From a virus (taxonomy: Duplodnaviria; Caudoviricetes): a DNA stretch of 64,000 bases. Positions within the stretch are counted from its first letter, which is position 1; the number at the start of each line of letters is the position of its first letter. The notes beneath the pieces were generated by a model. That model was not told the origin of the DNA. It saw nothing but the letters and a program-made list of their open reading frames with translations, and searched no databases. Of this stretch, positions 12,404 through 27,865 are shown one piece after another. The stretch lies in the IMG/VR virus record IMGVR_UViG_3300013121_000039, positions 64,001-128,000 of that record; one strand, written 5' to 3'. Both the position numbers and the translations under genes were made by a program.

Positions 12404-12503
12404 CACCTGCCCGAAGTGCGGGCTGGCCATCGACCCCGCCACGCCCCGGTACTGCAAGACGTGCGGCACCGAGCCCTTCGAGAAGAAGCCGGACACCAAG
12501 TAG
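12345..12503 (+). CDS. Small zinc-ribbon protein
   Basis: AAGGAG RBS; CPKC...CKTC. Confidence 0.6.
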   Translation: MEKYGVEFDQEKTKTSGKGDTCPKCGLAIDPATPRYCKTCGTEPFEKKPDTK

Positions 12504-22450: not shown

Positions 22451-22606
22451 ATGACGCTCTTGTCGCAAACACGGTGGTCGGACTCAGTGGCCGAAAGGGC
22501 CCTGCTGTCCCACGTGTATGCGGCGATGGAGTGCGCCACCCTCGTGGCCTCCAAGCGCGACCCCCAGGCCCAGATCCCGTTCAACGGTAGCAGGCCCGGC
22601 CCATAG
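22451..22606 (+). CDS. Putative attenuator leader peptide (51 aa, all 20 amino acids)
   Basis: MTLLSQTRWSDSVAERALLSHVYAAMECATLVASKRDPQAQIPFNGSRPGP*; ATG 10 nt after the -10 box, no SD; stop lies inside the antiterminator. Confidence 0.65.
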   Translation: MTLLSQTRWSDSVAERALLSHVYAAMECATLVASKRDPQAQIPFNGSRPGP

Positions 22607-22645
22607 AAGAACCACTCCAGAGTGGACCCCTTCTAGAGGCCGGGC
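22594..22645 (+). promoter_or_regulatory. Antiterminator hairpin
   Basis: GCCCGGCC(22594-22601)/GGCCGGGC(22638-22645), TAGAAG/CTTCTA and CCACT/AGTGG pairings. Confidence 0.65.
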
Positions 22646-22674
22646 GAGCAAAGGCTCCCCGGCCTCTTCGTTTT
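22635..22674 (+). terminator. Attenuator terminator upstream of the first tRNA
   Basis: AGAGGCCGGG-c-GAGC / GCTC-CCCGGCCTCT stem followed by TCGTTTT. Confidence 0.75.
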
Positions 22675-22708
22675 CCTGAGGAGGCACGGATGAAACGACA
22701 ACCGACAT

Positions 22709-22780
22709 AGGTCCCCATGCCCAAGGCTGGCGAGCTGGTCTCCAAAACCGGCTGGGAGGGTTCGATTCCCTCGGGACCTG
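22709..22780 (+). tRNA. tRNA-Trp(CCA)
   Basis: Cloverleaf, anticodon loop CTCCAAA; D-arm divergent. Confidence 0.8.
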
Positions 22781-22786
22781 CTGTAC

Positions 22787-22860
22787 GCCCTGGTAGCTCA
22801 GCTGGTAGCAGCGCCGCACTCGTAATGCGGAGGTCGCCGGTTCGACTCCGGCTCAGGGCT
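22787..22860 (+). tRNA. tRNA-Thr(CGT)
   Basis: Cloverleaf, loop CTCGTAA. Confidence 0.88.
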
Positions 22861-22871
22861 CACAAGAAGAT

Positions 22872-22947
22872 GCGGCTCTAGCTCAGCTGGTAGAGCGCTG
22901 CCTTGCCAAGGCAGAGGTCGCGGGTTCGATTCCCGTGAGCCGCTCCA
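22872..22947 (+). tRNA. tRNA-Gly(GCC)
   Basis: Cloverleaf, loop TTGCCAA, TCCA end. Confidence 0.93.
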
Positions 22948-22951
22948 GTAC

Positions 22952-23033
22952 GGGGACGTTGACGGTAAGGGTACCGACGCCGGCTGTAAACCGGCTCTCC
23001 TTGAGCAACCTGGTTCGAGTCCAGGCGGCCCCA
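22952..23033 (+). tRNA. tRNA-Tyr(GTA)
   Basis: Loop CTGTAAA, long variable arm. Confidence 0.8.
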
Positions 23034-23046
23034 TTCGCAGCACCGC

Positions 23047-23060
23047 AGTTCTTTGACAAC
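23047..23060 (+). promoter_or_regulatory. boxA-like antitermination element
   Basis: AGTTCTTTGACAAC resembles rrn boxA (GCTCTTTAACA). Confidence 0.6.
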
Positions 23061-23082
23061 TGAATCGCAGTGACAGTGAAGA

Positions 23083-23161
23083 TGCAGGGACGGGTGCGTC
23101 CCACGATGCTCTGCGCCTGAACTCGTGTCAGGAGCAACATCAGCGCGCACCCGTCCCAGCA
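23083..23161 (+). ncRNA. Long hairpin RNA of unknown class
   Basis: Perfect 12-bp GGGACGGGTGCG/CGCACCCGTCCC stem with internal CCTGA/TCAGG stem. Confidence 0.5.
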
Positions 23162-23168
23162 GTACTTC

Positions 23169-23239
23169 GCGTCTCTAGCTCTGGGGAGAGCAGTGGCCTT
23201 TTAAGCCGAAAGAAGTGGGTTCGACTCCCACGGGACGCA
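23169..23239 (+). tRNA. tRNA-Lys(TTT)
   Basis: Loop CTTTTAA; imperfect anticodon stem. Confidence 0.78.
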
Positions 23240-23244
23240 CACAC

Positions 23245-23320
23245 GCCTGCGTAACTCAACTGGTAGAGTACTCGGCTCTTAACCGAGAAGTTGTGGGTTC
23301 GACTCCCTCCGCAGGTACCA
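23245..23320 (+). tRNA. tRNA-Lys(CTT)
   Basis: Loop CTCTTAA, ACCA end. Confidence 0.9.
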
Positions 23321-23323
23321 TCT

Positions 23324-23401
23324 TCCTCGTTGGTGCAGTCAGCTGTTGAGCACGTCGCGCTTGAAGCGCGGAGGCCCTGGCCTTGCGATCAGGACGAGGA
23401 G
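23324..23401 (+). tRNA. Atypical tRNA-like RNA (TGA anticodon, no long variable arm, non-canonical T loop)
   Basis: TCCTCGT/ACGAGGA acceptor; loop CTTGAAG; T loop CCTTGCGA. Confidence 0.5.
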
Positions 23402-23407
23402 CATCAT

Positions 23408-23483
23408 GCGGCACTAGCTCAGTTGGTAGAGCGTCGGCTTCCCAAGCCGAAGGTCGCGGGTTCGAATCCCGCGTGCCGCTCCA
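23408..23483 (+). tRNA. tRNA-Gly(CCC)
   Basis: Loop TTCCCAA, TCCA end. Confidence 0.93.
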
Positions 23484-23487
23484 GCAT

Positions 23488-23562
23488 GCGGGTGTAGCTC
23501 AGTGGTAGAGCTCTGGCCTTCCAAGCCGGGAGTCGACGGTTCGAATCCGTTCACCCGCTCCA
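23488..23562 (+). tRNA. tRNA-Gly(TCC)
   Basis: Loop CTTCCAA, TCCA end. Confidence 0.93.
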
Positions 23563-23565
23563 TCT

Positions 23566-23797
23566 TCTCCGTACCCGGGTAGCTTAATGGCAGAGCTCCA
23601 GCCTATGAAGCTGGCGATGCGGCTTCGAGACCCGCCCTGGGGGAGATCGTCGTGAGGGGTACTGAACCCCAATCGGCTACGGAGAGTACCGGGTCGCGAG
23701 GCCCGGGCAGGCCCTCCTCGATGAGTGGGGAGGTGGAAGATGCAGGGCCATCGGGGCCCGAGCCTCTGCCATGTCGGTGAGATCCCGGCCGCCTGAC
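23566..23797 (+). ncRNA. About 230-nt structured RNA with an embedded tRNA-like domain (ATG anticodon)
   Basis: D arm TAGCTTAATGGCAGAGC, CCAGC-CTATGAA-GCTGG arm, T-like arm; TCTCCGTA/TACGGAGA long-range stem; further hairpins. Confidence 0.5.
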
Positions 23798-23807
23798 ACA
23801 AGTTCGC

Positions 23808-23881
23808 AGAGGAGTCGTCCAACGGCAGGACGCTGGTCTTTGGAGCCAGCTATCTCGGTTCGAATCCGAGCTCCTCTTCCA
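23808..23881 (+). tRNA. tRNA-Gln(TTG)
   Basis: Loop CTTTGGA, CCA end. Confidence 0.88.
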
Positions 23882-23887
23882 CTTCGC

Positions 23888-23962
23888 AGGGGTGTAGTTC
23901 AACGGCAGAACGTCTGGCTCTGGACCAGAAAGTTGAAGGTTCGAATCCTTCCACCCCTTCCA
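23888..23962 (+). tRNA. tRNA-Gln(CTG)
   Basis: Loop CTCTGGA, CCA end. Confidence 0.9.
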
Positions 23963-23966
23963 CCTT

Positions 23967-24042
23967 GCCGGCGTAGCTCAGTTGGCAGAGCAGCCGCCTT
24001 GTAAGCGGCAGGTCGCGAGTCCGACTCTCGCCGCCGGCTCCA
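23967..24042 (+). tRNA. tRNA-Thr(TGT)
   Basis: Loop CTTGTAA, CCA end. Confidence 0.9.
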
Positions 24043-24051
24043 TCTTCACAT

Positions 24052-24124
24052 TCCGGGGTAGCTCAACTGGCAGAGCGGGCGGCTGTTAACCGTCAGGTTG
24101 GGGGTTCGAATCCCTCCTCCGGAG
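24052..24124 (+). tRNA. tRNA-Asn(GTT)
   Basis: Loop CTGTTAA, U1-A72, G73. Confidence 0.9.
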
Positions 24125-24130
24125 CTTCAT

Positions 24131-24205
24131 GAGTCGCAAGTCATCGAGGGATGGCCGCGGTCTGCAACACCGCAGAGCGGAGTTCGACTCTCCGGCGACT
24201 CTCCA
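24131..24205 (+). tRNA. tRNA-Cys(GCA)
   Basis: Loop CTGCAAC, U73, CCA end. Confidence 0.85.
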
Positions 24206-24209
24206 GTAC

Positions 24210-24284
24210 GGCCCTGTCTTCTAGCGGTAGGAAGCCGGACTCTCAATCCGGTAACGGCGGGTTCGATTCCCCCCAGGGTCACCA
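24210..24284 (+). tRNA. tRNA-Glu(CTC)
   Basis: Loop CTCTCAA, ACCA end. Confidence 0.85.
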
Positions 24285-24289
24285 CTCAC

Positions 24290-24362
24290 GTCGCGTTCGT
24301 CCAGGGGCCAAGGACGCTGGCCTTTCAAGCCGGAAACGCGGGTTCGAATCCCGCACGCGATA
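24290..24362 (+). tRNA. tRNA-Glu(TTC)
   Basis: Loop CTTTCAA. Confidence 0.88.
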
Positions 24363-24365
24363 CTT

Positions 24366-24439
24366 CGGGGTGTAGCGCAGCCTGGTAGCGCGCCTGCCTT
24401 GGGCGCAGGAGGTCGCGGGTCCGAATCCCGCCACCCCGA
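24366..24439 (+). tRNA. tRNA-Pro(TGG)
   Basis: Loop CTTGGGC, C1-G72. Confidence 0.88.
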
Positions 24440-24502
24440 CTCGTATTTTAGGTTCAGGCCCGAAGCTAAAATAAGGGGCCGACCTGTGATGGCTTACTTC
24501 AA

Positions 24503-24576
24503 CAGCGTGTAGCTCAGCTTGGTAGAGCACCAGCTTGGGGTGCTGGGGGCCGGAGGTTCAAATCCTCTCACGCTGA
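24503..24576 (+). tRNA. tRNA-Pro(GGG)
   Basis: Loop TTGGGGT. Confidence 0.9.
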
Positions 24577-24582
24577 CTTCTT

Positions 24583-24656
24583 CGGGGTGTAGCTCAGACT
24601 GGTAGAGCGCACGGTTCGGGACCGTGAGGTCGCTGGTTCGATTCCAGTCACCCCGA
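24583..24656 (+). tRNA. tRNA-Pro(CGG)
   Basis: Loop TTCGGGA. Confidence 0.9.
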
Positions 24657-24664
24657 CTCTTCAT

Positions 24665-24742
24665 CCGCTCGTAGCTCACGTGGCCCAGAGCACCCGCCTG
24701 ATAAGCGGGAGGTAGGTGGTTCAAGTCCACCCGAGCGGACCA
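24665..24742 (+). tRNA. tRNA-Ile(GAT)
   Basis: Loop CTGATAA, ACCA end. Confidence 0.9.
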
Positions 24743-24749
24743 TCTTCAT

Positions 24750-24824
24750 GGTGATGTTCGTCCAACGGCAGGACATGGGATTGTGGATCCCAGAATGAGA
24801 GTTCGACCCTCTCACATCACCCCA
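24750..24824 (+). tRNA. tRNA-His(GTG)
   Basis: G-1, loop TTGTGGA, C73, CCA end. Confidence 0.9.
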
Positions 24825-24829
24825 TTCAC

Positions 24830-24920
24830 GGGGGACCTCTCCGCAGCGGAGGGTACATGCCCACCGGCTCTTGCGCGCCGACACGGCTAAGGTCCTGGGG
24901 TTGAAGTCCCCGGTCCCCCT
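24830..24920 (+). ncRNA. tRNA-like RNA with non-canonical core
   Basis: GGGGGAC/GTCCCCC acceptor-like stem and T-like arm, but no standard D or anticodon arms. Confidence 0.45.
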
Positions 24921-24930
24921 CCTTCGTCCT

Positions 24931-25005
24931 GGGGTCATCGTTCATCGGTCAGGACACCGGCCTGTCACGCCGGAGAGGCGAGTTCGATTCTCGCTGGCCC
25001 CGCCA
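24931..25005 (+). tRNA. tRNA-Asp(GTC)
   Basis: Loop CTGTCAC, GCCA end. Confidence 0.9.
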
Positions 25006-25009
25006 TCTT

Positions 25010-25085
25010 GGAGCGATAGCTCAGCAGGTAGAGCACTGGTCTGAAGAGCCGGGTGTCGCAGGTTCGATTCCTGCTCGCTCCACCA
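25010..25085 (+). tRNA. tRNA-Phe(GAA)
   Basis: Loop CTGAAGA, ACCA end. Confidence 0.9.
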
Positions 25086-25087
25086 CC

Positions 25088-25180
25088 CTTCGCAGCAACC
25101 TCATGAATCGCGATGCGGGACCCTACCCCGCCTCTCACGACGACGAGGGCCTCGGTACTTGCGGCCGCGGTGCTGCGAAG
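25088..25180 (+). ncRNA. Structured RNA of unknown class
   Basis: 10-bp closing stem CTTCGCAGCA/TGCTGCGAAG with internal hairpins. Confidence 0.4.
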
Positions 25181-25187
25181 ACTTCTT

Positions 25188-25260
25188 GGGGCCGTAGCTC
25201 AGTTGGGAGAGCGCCTGCTTCGCACGCAGGAGGTCAAGGGTTCGACTCCCTTCGGTTCCA
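25188..25260 (+). tRNA. tRNA-Ala(CGC)
   Basis: Loop TTCGCAC, G3:U70. Confidence 0.9.
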
Positions 25261-25263
25261 CAT

Positions 25264-25339
25264 GCGCGCGTAGTTCAGTGGCCAGAACGCTGCCTTGACA
25301 TGGCAGAGATCGCCGGTTCGAGTCCGGCCGCGCGTACCA
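25264..25339 (+). tRNA. tRNA-Val(GAC)
   Basis: Loop TTGACAT, ACCA end. Confidence 0.9.
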
Positions 25340-25345
25340 CTTCCC

Positions 25346-25421
25346 GGGGCTATAGCTCAGACGGGAGAGCGCCTGGATGGCATCCAGGAGGTCGTCGGTT
25401 CGATCCCGACTGGCTCCACCA
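25346..25421 (+). tRNA. tRNA-Ala(GGC)
   Basis: Loop ATGGCAT, G3:U70. Confidence 0.9.
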
Positions 25422-25427
25422 CTTCAC

Positions 25428-25503
25428 GGGTCCATAGCTCCAACGGGAGAGCAGCGGCTTTGCAAGCCGACGGTTGCCGGTTCGAGTCCGGCTGGATCCA
25501 CCA
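25428..25503 (+). tRNA. tRNA-Ala(TGC)
   Basis: Loop TTTGCAA, G3:U70. Confidence 0.88.
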
Positions 25504-25517
25504 CATCAGGAGTACGC

Positions 25518-25733
25518 ATGCCGCGGCCGCCAGAGGCTCAAGCCCTCTTCGAAAGGAGCGGGATGTTCTCGACTCACGAGAAGTTGGTCTCCTTCCTCTA
25601 CGAGCTGATGAGGGACCACCTTCCCCCAGGAGTCGTCGAGAGGCTCGTCCAGAACAACCAGGAGACTCCGGCGTCGCTGACGAACGGCTACCTGGCGCAG
25701 TACGCCAAGGACCTCGCCGACCGACTCAAGTAG
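25518..25733 (+). CDS. Small hypothetical protein inside the tRNA array
   Basis: AGGAG RBS; stop abuts the next tRNA. Confidence 0.7.
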   Translation: MPRPPEAQALFERSGMFSTHEKLVSFLYELMRDHLPPGVVERLVQNNQETPASLTNGYLAQYAKDLADRLK

Positions 25734-25734
25734 T

Positions 25735-25808
25735 GCCGATGTAGCTCAGAGGCAGAGCACTGCCTTGGTAAGGCAGCGGTCTGGGTTCGACCCCCAGCAT
25801 CGGCTCCA
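25735..25808 (+). tRNA. tRNA-Thr(GGT)
   Basis: Loop TTGGTAA, CCA end. Confidence 0.88.
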
Positions 25809-25812
25809 TCAT

Positions 25813-25890
25813 CCGCCCGTAGCTCAGCTGGATCAGAGCGCTTGACTACGAATCAAGAGGCCGGGGGTTCGAATCCCTCCGGGCGGACCA
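25813..25890 (+). tRNA. tRNA-Arg(ACG)
   Basis: Loop CTACGAA, ACCA end. Confidence 0.92.
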
Positions 25891-25893
25891 CAT

Positions 25894-25971
25894 GCGTCTG
25901 TAGCTCAGATGGAAGAGAGCGCTGGCCTCCGAAGCCAGAGGGCGGGGGTTCGAGTCCCTCCAGACGCGCCA
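25894..25971 (+). tRNA. tRNA-Arg(CCG)
   Basis: Loop CTCCGAA, GCCA end. Confidence 0.92.
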
Positions 25972-25974
25972 CAT

Positions 25975-26049
25975 GCTCCTGTAGCTCAGGTGGACGAGAG
26001 CGGCTGTTTCCTAAACAGCAGGCCGGGTGTTCGAGTCACCCCAGGAGCA
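25975..26049 (+). tRNA. tRNA-Arg(CCT)
   Basis: Loop TTCCTAA. Confidence 0.88.
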
Positions 26050-26055
26050 CTTCAC

Positions 26056-26137
26056 TGCGGGATCGTCTAGTGGCCATGACACCGGGCTCATAACCCGGGG
26101 GCGAAAGCCATCGTGGGTTCGAGTCCCACTCCCGCAA
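26056..26137 (+). tRNA. tRNA-Met(CAT), initiator-like, with long variable arm
   Basis: CCGGG-CTCATAA-CCCGG arm; variable hairpin GGC-GAAA-GCC. Confidence 0.8.
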
Positions 26138-26140
26138 CAT

Positions 26141-26216
26141 GCACGCCGAGGTAGCTGGAGACACCGCCTCTCTCACACGGAGGACTTGCTGGGTTCGATC
26201 CCCAGGGCGTGCACCA
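26141..26216 (+). tRNA. tRNA-Val(CAC)
   Basis: Loop CTCACAC, ACCA end; D-arm divergent. Confidence 0.75.
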
Positions 26217-26223
26217 TCTTCAT

Positions 26224-26308
26224 GTCCAGGTGGCGGAACTGGTAGACGCACCAGCTTGAGGGGCTGGCGGGTAACACCGTGCGGGTTCGATTCCCGCCCT
26301 GGACACCA
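26224..26308 (+). tRNA. tRNA-Leu(GAG)
   Basis: Class II, loop TTGAGGG. Confidence 0.92.
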
Positions 26309-26313
26309 TCTTC

Positions 26314-26397
26314 GGTCGAGTGGCGGAATGGTAGACGCACCTGGCTCAGAACCAGGCGGGTAACACCGTGAGAGTTCGACTCTCTCCTCGACCACCA
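26314..26397 (+). tRNA. tRNA-Leu(CAG)
   Basis: Class II, loop CTCAGAA. Confidence 0.92.
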
Positions 26398-26401
26398 TCA
26401 T

Positions 26402-26482
26402 GCCCGAGTGGCGGAACGGTAGACGCGGCGGACTCAAAACCCGCTGCCGAGAGGCGTGCCGGTTCGAGTCCGGCTTCGGGCA
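26402..26482 (+). tRNA. tRNA-Leu(CAA)
   Basis: Class II, loop CTCAAAA. Confidence 0.9.
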
Positions 26483-26521
26483 CTTCACGCAGTACCACTA
26501 CAACAAGAAAGGAGCGTAGCG

Positions 26522-27066
26522 ATGGACACGTTGGTGTTGTCCCACGCCTACGAGCCCGTCGCACGCGTCCACTGGCAACGGGCCGTAACCCTCCTCTGGG
26601 AGGGCAAGGTCGAGGTCATCGAGGAGTACGAGAGCAGGACGGTCAGGTCGGTCACGCTGGAGTTCAAGATCCCCAGCATCATCCGCTTCCTCAACGTCAT
26701 CCGCCGGCGCAAGCCGTCGATGAAGTTCTCGCGAGAGAACGTCTTCGCTCGGGACAAGGGCCGCTGCCAGTACTGCGGCAACAAGGTCACGAGAGCAGAG
26801 TCGACCTACGACCACGTCACCCCGCGGTCGAAGGGGGGCGGGACGAACTGGGAGAACGTCGTCATCGCCTGCACCCCGTGCAACCAGCGGAAGAGCGACA
26901 AGACCCCGGCCCAGGCCGGCATGAAGCTGCTCTCGGTGCCGGTGAAGCCGGCGCACCTGCCTGGCACCACCAGGCTGACGTTCCTGCTCGACAAGAACGT
27001 GCCGCAGTCCTGGAAGCAGCTCATGATGGACTACGGCTACTGGCACGGCGAGCTGGAGCACGACTA

Positions 27067-27067
<1 letters not shown>
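26522..27067 (+). CDS. HNH endonuclease (McrA-like) inside the tRNA array
   Basis: RDKGRCQYCG...TYDHVTPRSKGG...WENVVIACTPCNQRK. Confidence 0.92.
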
Positions 27068-27158
<91 letters not shown>

Positions 27159-27224
27159 GCGTGTGTGGCCCCGAGCACCTTGGGTGTCTGGCACTCAGCC
27201 AGAGCGCACCATCGGGGCATCCTT

Positions 27225-27314
27225 GGAAGAGTGGGTGAGTGGCTCAAACCACCGGCCTCGAAAACCGGACGTGGGGCAACCTGCGCGAGAGTTCGAATCT
27301 CTCCTCTTCCGCCA
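27225..27314 (+). tRNA. tRNA-Ser(CGA)
   Basis: Class II, loop CTCGAAA. Confidence 0.9.
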
Positions 27315-27319
27315 TCTTT

Positions 27320-27409
27320 GGAAGCGTGGCCGAGTGGCTCAAGGCACCAGCTTGGAAAGCTGGAGGTGGCTCCGGCTGCCCGCAGGTTCGAATCCTGCCG
27401 CTTCCGCCA
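27320..27409 (+). tRNA. tRNA-Ser(GGA)
   Basis: Class II, loop TTGGAAA. Confidence 0.92.
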
Positions 27410-27412
27410 TCT

Positions 27413-27503
27413 GGAGAGGTGGGCGAGTGGCTCATGCCGCCGGTTTGCTAAACCGGTCTGCGATCACATCAAAGCGAGGGTTCGAATCCCTCCCTCTCCG
27501 CCA
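27413..27503 (+). tRNA. tRNA-Ser(GCT)
   Basis: Class II, loop TTGCTAA. Confidence 0.9.
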
Positions 27504-27506
27504 CAT

Positions 27507-27583
27507 GCCCCCGTAGCTCAGAGGACAAGAGCAGCCGCCTTCTAAGCGGACGGTCGCTGGTTCGAGTCCAGCCGGGGGCACCA
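27507..27583 (+). tRNA. tRNA-Arg(TCT)
   Basis: Loop CTTCTAA, ACCA end. Confidence 0.9.
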
Positions 27584-27607
27584 CTGTCACTACGACTCAG
27601 GAGTCCT

Positions 27608-27865
27608 ATGAAGAAGGTCGCGAAGATCACCGGCCGGGCGCTCTGCTACGACGTGCTGGAGTGCCCCATCTGCGAAGCCCGCACCGTCGTCAACGAGAAC
27701 ATGCCCTGGTGCGCCACGTGCGGCACCGAGTACTACCACGGCCGAGACGACCGGAAGACCGGCGCCAGACGCTGGGTCTTCGACACGAAGCGGAAGACGC
27801 CACAGTACGCCTGGGGCAAGGCCCTGAACCTGTCCGGCGGGATACGGATCGGGCCGAAGAAGTAG
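27608..27865 (+). CDS. Zinc-ribbon hypothetical protein
   Basis: AGGAG RBS; CPIC...CATC. Confidence 0.65.
   Translation: MKKVAKITGRALCYDVLECPICEARTVVNENMPWCATCGTEYYHGRDDRKTGARRWVFDTKRKTPQYAWGKALNLSGGIRIGPKK

Follow-up and report, generated by a model that had tools for sequence, protein, structure and literature searches.

Large phage tRNA arrays are now viewed as devices for counter-defence and for the takeover of translation, and the spacers within them are treated as filler. Small stable RNAs that are co-transcribed with tRNAs are known from phage T4, whose tRNA cluster contains the 'species 1 and 2' RNAs (rnaC and rnaD), and from E. coli, which produces 3'ETS-leuZ; the function of 3'ETS-leuZ is regulatory and that of the T4 species is unknown. 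GOLLD and ROOL are structured non-coding RNAs of 500-800 nt, with conserved cores of their own, that lie near phage tRNA genes. In Y RNAs with tRNA-like domains, such as YrlA and Yrn1 of D. radiodurans, flanking strands form a helix that is attached to a tRNA-shaped domain; such RNAs also occur in phages, and YrlA carries a GNCGAAN0-1G motif near its 5' end (Chen et al. 2014, PMC4201824). Theta ribozymes, which are minimal HDV-like ribozymes, are found behind phage tRNAs, at most 5 nt from the tRNA end, and fold into a nested double pseudoknot with a catalytic C; a role in trailer processing has been proposed for them (Kienbeck et al. 2024, PMC10879173). Finally, phage tRNAs with changes in the anticodon loop have been proposed to evade host tRNases or anticodon nucleases (van den Berg et al. 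2023, PMC10264068).

The locus described here belongs to an uncultured soil phage with about 65% G+C, whose 138-kb record is 72% complete. The window, that is, the whole stretch of 64,000 nucleotides that was analysed, contains 41 tRNA genes at 22710-27583 on the + strand (ARAGORN). The interval between tRNA-Gly(UCC) and tRNA-Gln(UUG) holds a tRNA with the anticodon AUG followed by 163 nt, in which a folded module of about 130 nt is predicted. We propose that the interval is a composite of a guest tRNA gene in a variable array slot and an accompanying structured module. From the comparison of related sequences, the module is predicted to be a new conserved RNA outside the families of Rfam 15.

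Like the T4 species and 3'ETS-leuZ, the module would be a non-tRNA RNA among the tRNA genes of one transcription unit, with ends set by the tRNA-processing enzymes; it has no relation to them in sequence or structure, but an architecture of its own, a tie to one variable slot and the possibility of tandem duplication. GOLLD, which the original prediction had raised without being able to match it, resembles the locus, as ROOL does, in being structured non-coding RNA near phage tRNA genes; the module has about 130 nt and the whole element 130-240 nt, against about 800 nt for GOLLD. Searches against Rfam 15 gave no match to the module at E<=10 (window 22500-27800, and the best-folding copy, in L099), so that membership in GOLLD or another Rfam family was not borne out; GOLLD, ROOL-type RNAs, known ribozymes and tmRNA are excluded as far as Rfam 15 goes. 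No tmRNA was found at the locus by ARAGORN or Rfam, and the small ORF with a terminal AA has no conserved counterpart in G001. A tmRNA gene does lie within the tRNA array of one relative (L048:8192-8543). With theta ribozymes the module has in common that a structured RNA directly follows a phage tRNA, but its helices come in a different order, no Rfam HDV-family model matches, and the copies share no conserved sequence immediately behind the slot tRNA. The loop-changed tRNAs of PMC10264068 are likewise extra phage tRNAs with a loop unlike the host type (here A34, often with C33 in relatives); they are ordinary isoacceptors with loop substitutions, whereas the locus has an anticodon of a class that cells avoid, and the His identity pair is absent from the window copy.

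The likeness to Y RNAs consists in the tRNA-shaped domain joined to a flanking-strand helix, the occurrence in phages and Ro60 near the arrays of two relatives. The differences are that the acceptor is uncapped and that the slot can hold a normal Leu tRNA. The YrlA model (RF02553, gathering score 69 bits) has no match over 23566-23807 and gives only 20-27-bit matches over pairs of ordinary tRNAs, as it also does in L099; the GNCGAAN0-1G motif is absent from 23560-23810, where H1 reads GNCGYGAG. No Ro60 (TROVE) gene was found in the source record, at its 72% completeness, or in the complete genome G001. Ro60 genes follow the array in two relatives, G005 (84.5-85.4 kb) and L093, at 7-9 kb from the module, where about 4 kb, with both on one strand, would be expected for a YrlA-type RNA. 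Just upstream of Ro60 in L093 lie two sub-threshold YrlA-like matches of 28 and 25 bits (L093:12175-12300 and 12443-12496), which may be divergent Y RNAs.

The guest tRNA and the module in the window

The tRNA features of the original prediction, namely a D arm, an anticodon arm, a T-like arm and a 6-bp acceptor stem without CCA, are all present in the sequence (Table 1). Rfam scores the tRNA (RF00005) at 49.9 bits for 23573-23643, above the gathering score of 29, and ARAGORN calls 'His(atg)' at 23572-23644. Read from the sequence, the cloverleaf forms 6 of 7 acceptor pairs, 4 of 4 in the D stem, 5 of 5 in the anticodon stem and 4 of 5 in the T stem. The short stem and the missing CCA had been taken as signs of something other than a tRNA; this reading was not borne out, as an encoded CCA is absent from 12 of the 41 array tRNAs and from most tRNAs in the arrays of two relatives. 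The 7-nt anticodon loop keeps U33, while the orthologues in G001 and G005 have C33. The G53-C61 pair that closes the T loop is present in both orthologues but replaced by C53/C61 in the window.

Charging with histidine is doubtful for the window tRNA because it lacks the bacterial His identity pair, G-1:C73; it has U-1/G73, and its anticodon is AUG, not GUG. The G001 orthologue has U-1:A73. The G005 orthologue has G-1:C73, and for it histidine charging is plausible from the sequence. The phage's own tRNA-His(GUG) is canonical, with G-1:C73 and CCA, and a phage HisRS was looked for and not found. In the likely genes of the window, 19% of His codons are CAU; for UAU and AAU the share is 2-5%. 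Two-codon boxes are generally free of A34, which risks misreading when the codon box is split. Bacterial TadA is known to edit only the Arg(ACG) loop, from which the loop of the window tRNA differs at position 35 alone. A literature search for a His tRNA with the anticodon AUG returned nothing relevant.

Table 1. Features of the slot, the module and their flanking tRNAs in the window
Feature	Coordinates	Strand	Evidence and remarks
tRNA-Gly(UCC), upstream slot anchor in all relatives having the slot	23488-23562	+	ARAGORN, Rfam; same neighbour in G001, G005, L092, L093, L097, L099
P1 5' strand, CU-rich leader that ends on tRNA position 1	23566-23573	+	Exact 8-nt complement of 23678-23685
Guest tRNA, anticodon AUG, loop CUAUGAA; A1/G72 and C53/C61 mismatches, U-1/G73, no CCA	23573-23643	+	Rfam, ARAGORN
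Small hairpin in the 33-nt insertion between tRNA 3' end and P1 3' strand	23656-23670	+	Sequence, MFE fold; this copy only, absent from G001
P1 3' strand, GA-rich	23678-23685	+	GA-rich core followed by U, kept in 8/8 copies
H1, 7-bp hairpin with GNRA tetraloop GCGA	23689-23706	+	Counterpart GNRA-capped hairpin in 8/8 copies
P2 5' strand	23708-23712	+	Pairs with 23791-23795; covaries
Variable inner domain closed by P2; hairpins 23713-23733, 23742-23769, 23773-23789	23713-23790	+	Folds
P2 3' strand	23791-23795	+	Pairs with 23708-23712
Conserved single-stranded tail reaching the 5' end of tRNA-Gln	23796-23807	+	Window, G001, L092, L093, both L099 copies; shifted form in L097 and G005
tRNA-Gln(UUG), downstream anchor	23808-23881	+	ARAGORN, Rfam

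The module has four parts: P1, H1, P2 and the tail. The pairing of the 5' flank with the downstream GA-rich strand, as originally predicted, is exact over its eight bases, and the hairpins that had been drawn behind the tRNA can be seen, including the last one (23773-23789), which resembles a T arm with its 5-bp stem and 7-nt loop. The multibranch had been closed by a GGCAG/CTGCC stem; its closing helix is instead P2, which covaries in the relatives. The fold energy of the window copy is unremarkable against shuffles (z=-0.6 for 23563-23807, z=-0.96 for the module). When the module is folded alone, z lies between -2.0 and -4.9 against dinucleotide shuffles in four of seven copies.

Other readings of the interval were rejected. 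No conserved ORF was found in it on either strand: a small ORF starting at 23740 behind a Shine-Dalgarno-like GGAGG is not conserved in comparison with G001, nor are the ORFs on the minus strand. A long-range helix between 23119-23132 and 23792-23805 would pair 13 of 14 positions in the window, but G001 offers no counterpart to pair with, and 23791-23795 was assigned to P2 instead.

Several further features of the array were noted. The first large array gap (window 23034-23168) is conserved with G001 (L017:4316-4535), a boxA-like stretch included. A 12-nt motif at 23078-23089 is repeated exactly at 23736-23747, inside the module, and each occurrence is followed by a GC hairpin and CUCUGC. Between tRNA-His and tRNA-Asp, 24828-24925 would form a tRNA-shaped RNA with a 7-bp acceptor-like stem, a T-arm-like hairpin and a remodelled middle, for which neither ARAGORN nor Rfam makes a call. 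An HNH endonuclease gene lies within the array (26456-27067), and its position between Leu-CAA and Ser-UGA is constant in every related array seen; its protein has 546 homologues at E<=1e-30. A homologue search with the 445-aa ORF upstream gave no relatives, and BLAST against cultured phages returned generic tRNA matches only. Public sequence runs from soil and activated sludge contain DNA contigs of a near-identical strain with two SNPs.

Related arrays and the covariation of H1 and P2

Relatives were collected in two rounds. The helicase encoded 2 kb downstream led to three related IMG/VR contigs, fifteen with alignment, and contigs carrying the closest HNH homologues added four arrays. Three of the relatives, G001, G002 and G005, are complete or near-complete genomes of about 200 kb with syntenic arrays. 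In total, the module was found in eight copies in seven phage arrays, the window included, always between tRNA-Gly(UCC) and tRNA-Gln; L099 carries a tandem pair.

The slot in front of the module has variable contents. It holds the AUG tRNA in the window and at the same place in G001, where a 148-nt spacer follows; a normal class-II tRNA-Leu(UAG) with CCA in L092 and in the second L099 copy; a weak 'Phe'-like tRNA with C33 together with a second tRNA-like (37 and 36 bits) in the first L099 copy; a tRNA-like whose anticodon loop is reduced to AGAGA in L093; a tRNA-like with the loop UAUUGAA and a poor acceptor in L097; and a decayed relic in G005. In the last genome, a 279-nt structured spacer (fold z=-4.5) begins with this decayed tRNA, whose T arm matches that of the G001 AUG tRNA (z=3.7), and lies upstream of an intact AUG tRNA. 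The intact tRNA stands just 5' of the conserved tail, where the window has its inner P2 domain. G002 has only the 3' half of an AUG tRNA directly after tRNA-Gly (z=6.5 against G001) and then a 5' tRNA-like half, and G012 has other tRNAs and tRNA fragments in the interval. Slot and module are gained or lost together: both are absent from L048, L049 and L095, in which tRNA-Gly(UCC) abuts tRNA-Gln.

Two relatives carry other genes of note. In the interval of L047 (L047:3553-4064), the place of the tRNA slot is taken by an ORF that shows the dCMP/cytidine deaminase signature HAE...PCxxC. L095, which belongs to NCBI assembly GCA_040961345.1, is a contig that has a syntenic array and the HNH gene beside rtcR, rtcB, rtcA and Ro60 (TROVE/vWA), an RNA-repair operon.

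Conservation is concentrated in a block of 26 nt that comprises the end of the P1 3' strand and H1: 25 of 26 positions are identical between the window and G001, in a setting where orthologous array tRNAs average 73% identity and the rest of the spacer is unalignable between the two. This block occurs once per genome, and a repeated promoter or operator is ruled out because of this uniqueness. H1 begins one to five bases after the P1 3' strand and is capped by GUGA, GCGA or GCAA, always a GNRA loop, in the eight copies; the invariance of this cap argues for structure at the level of RNA rather than DNA. All four basal pairs of H1 form within each of the eight copies, while strands combined across copies form a mean of 2.26 pairs, and only 7% of the combinations reach four. 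The 5' strand of P2 follows directly after H1. Over seven copies, P2 forms 4.86 of 5 pairs; its second pair is A-U in two copies, U-A in four and G-C in one, and its fifth is C-G in one, U-G in three and U-A in three. The comparison thus establishes H1 and P2 as conserved and covarying helices of the predicted RNA. The domain between the P2 strands ranges from 48 to 102 nt and contains hairpins that cannot be aligned between copies.

Support for P1 is moderate. Leader and trailer can pair over 5-10 bp in all eight copies, and flanking pairs that differ between the window, L093 and G001 still match; in G001, P1 would form about 19 stacked pairs with the acceptor helix, interrupted by one 4-nt bulge. 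P1 is less secure because both strands are of low complexity, CU-rich and GA-rich. The leader resembles a trailer motif common behind the CCA in the array, and matches of 6-8 nt between leader and downstream sequence also occur at other tRNAs, so the pairing may be partly fortuitous.

These figures describe seven to eight copies from one phage lineage, in an alignment made partly by hand from short anchors; the leader and the inner domain are unalignable by MAFFT, and a strict regular expression for the module finds only the window and G001 because the stems of the other copies are bulged. The inner P2 domain looks derived from a tRNA: its features include a T-arm-like hairpin and recurrent loops of the CAUG type, and G005 has an intact AUG tRNA at its place. 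Part of the pairing could therefore go back to earlier acceptor stems and not be under present selection. A hand alignment of the window P2 domain with the G005 AUG tRNA was not significant (z=1.6).

Covariation among homologues had been named as the check on the original prediction, its absence to be read as a decayed tRNA plus spacer, and compensatory changes were found in both H1 and P2 of the module. The larger claim, of a structured RNA with an embedded tRNA-like domain, survives in part: H1 and P2 covary over the seven to eight copies and P1 can form in all eight, but the AUG tRNA is not the conserved core, as the tRNAs in the slot differ.

AUG tRNAs within and beyond the locus

An AUG anticodon defines a tRNA class that is generally held to be avoided in cells. 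The window and G001 copies have the D arm, the anticodon loop and the T loop in common (local alignment z=11), and their acceptor stems differ at almost every position with pairing kept. The intact G005 copy (z=5.6) has the loop CCAUGAC and lies 21 nt before tRNA-Gln. The three syntenic tRNAs have kept the AUG anticodon and A37 with compensatory changes in the stems.

Pattern scans recovered additional well-formed AUG tRNAs, mostly on phage DNA and also in prophages and tRNA arrays. Two are neighbours of tRNA-Arg(GCG) in tRNA arrays of planctomycetes. An Eggerthellaceae prophage has one between genes for a CI-like repressor and YqaJ/RecT, and another, from Rhodococcus, is matched by near-identical copies on two prophage contigs, with compensatory changes in the acceptor; two more are on other phage contigs, one having G3-U70. 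Pairing of the cloverleaf reaches 96% over ten AUG tRNAs, 15 of 21 pairs have changed on both sides, and three of the tRNAs have a mismatch at 1-72. C33 is present in 5 of the 10; the scans required the loop sequence and are hence uninformative on loop conservation. A well-formed AUG tRNA type therefore recurs, mostly on phage DNA. The AUG tRNA at L081:11560-11631, on a phage contig of 74% G+C, combines G3-U70 with A73, which is the alanine identity set.

Other searches led elsewhere. An exact search of IMG/VR with the anticodon arm gave only chance matches in coding DNA, and the metagenome pattern-scan matches in low-GC rumen and other phage arrays were tRNA-likes with long insertions after the ATGAA loop, which are a different thing. 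Part of the metagenome signal is probably due to start codons of ORFs or to Y-RNA-like tRNA-likes. Insertions of 40-60 nt in or just after an anticodon loop containing ATGA are seen in tRNA-likes at L073:6994-7100, L022:1150-1400(-) and L024:1740-1870(-), which may be of the Y-RNA-like type or intron-bearing tRNAs.

Further unusual tRNAs and tRNA-likes were observed in the contigs surveyed. Six large-phage contigs (L074, L076, L078, L080, L083 and L085) carry, inside their arrays, a nearly identical aberrant tRNA-like that ARAGORN does not call; its acceptor 5' strand and D arm are normal, after which CCAUGA pairs with UCAUGG across the T arm. Three adjacent tRNAs in G002 (L019:10164-10391) have odd anticodon loops, one being CCAUAAG (called Tyr-AUA, although not class II) and two being 9-nt loops that end in UAAGCAA. 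Two relatives each have, standing alone, a tRNA that is called Ile(AAU) and so likewise carries A34 in its anticodon (L046:17502-17576 and L048:996-1071).

Possible roles of the module

We put at about an even chance the reading that the module is not debris but either a cis-acting element for processing or stability or a stable small RNA punctuated by tRNAs, with the AUG tRNA as an interchangeable passenger. The array is probably one transcript. RNase P cleavage at tRNA-Gln would generate the 3' end of the module, and its 5' end would come from 3' processing of the guest tRNA, or of tRNA-Gly if P1 persists. The product would be a discrete small RNA, of about 130 nt if it is the module by itself and of about 240 nt if the guest tRNA is included; we infer such a release because an array read as one transcript would be cut by tRNA-processing enzymes. 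P1 should slow or redirect RNase P and RNase Z on the guest tRNA, or else offer a site for RNase III; delayed or redirected maturation is expected because P1 extends the acceptor stem. The module is dispensable, as some relatives do without it.

This absence is also what would be expected if the interval were birth-and-death debris, that is, the remains of duplicated NUG-type tRNAs, among which the AUG tRNA is a survivor and the helices are old tRNA arms with no present function. The two half-tRNAs of G002, the fragments in G012, the T-arm-like hairpin of the window and the G005 arrangement, in which the copy enclosed by P1 has decayed and an intact AUG tRNA occupies the place of the P2 domain, all fit such a history. 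Neutral relics, however, should lose their pairing, and H1 keeps its GNRA cap and full pairing in eight copies despite turnover of the stem; a single P2 pair appears as A-U, U-A and G-C, the H1 block is conserved well beyond the array tRNAs, and the alignment of the P2 domain with the G005 tRNA falls short of significance. We thus consider debris an unlikely explanation. It is also conceivable, though we think it quite improbable, that the guest tRNA and the module make up a single stable RNA of about 240 nt and with it a new class of phage tRNA mimic, in which P1 keeps the guest domain unprocessed and the tRNA body is displayed to a host or phage factor, recruiting or trapping it as a nuclease decoy or a Y-RNA-like tether might do. 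The decoy for anticodon nucleases was a suggestion of the original prediction, and the comparison brought it no direct support. The factor could be a modification enzyme, a defence nuclease that targets tRNAs, or a complex of the RNA-repair or Ro type; the anticodon would be free to drift, H1 and P2 would confer stability or a second binding site, and the cassette would spread and duplicate within tRNA arrays. In every copy, P1 stacks on the acceptor helix, and the slot tRNAs are often aberrant (AUG with C33, UAUUGAA and AGAGA loops) yet keep their D and T arms at Rfam scores of 36-50 bits, which fits selection for shape over decoding; the Ro60 genes that follow the arrays of G005 and L093 would suit a tether. 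Against this stand the normal Leu(UAG) tRNAs with CCA in the L092 and L099 slots, the complete G001 genome without Ro60, the lack of a YrlA match or motif in the region, the separate YrlA-like candidates of L093 right before its Ro60, and the well-formed AUG tRNAs that occur without a module in other phages and prophages.

Those same tRNAs lend weight to the idea that only the tRNA matters and the spacer is irrelevant, the tRNA decoding CAU by an A34-U pair and serving perhaps as a back-up tRNA-His that is resistant to nucleases or independent of modification. Ten well-formed examples in phages, prophages and tRNA arrays, the retention of AUG and A37 in three syntenic copies while the stems covary, the His pair of the G005 copy and the share of CAU codons, higher than that of UAU and AAU, are in line with it, as is the proposed escape of loop-changed phage tRNAs from anticodon nucleases (PMC10264068). 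However, positions -1 and 73 in the window and G001 differ from those of the phage's tRNA-His(GUG), the search for a phage HisRS found none, and C33 replaces the universal U33 in G001, G005 and half of the ten. The AUG tRNA was, moreover, lost in G002, its place is taken by other tRNAs in L092, L093, L097 and L099, and A34 in a split codon box carries the general risk of misreading. This leaves a role of the tRNA alone quite doubtful.

The comparison shows one spacer of a phage tRNA array to be a conserved, covarying RNA fold that goes with a slot of changing, unusual tRNAs. This offers a concrete handle on array processing, on the gain of tRNAs and on non-decoding uses of tRNA-shaped RNAs. 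In addition, independent well-formed AUG tRNAs, nearly all linked to phages, make the use of A34 tRNAs in split codon boxes testable.
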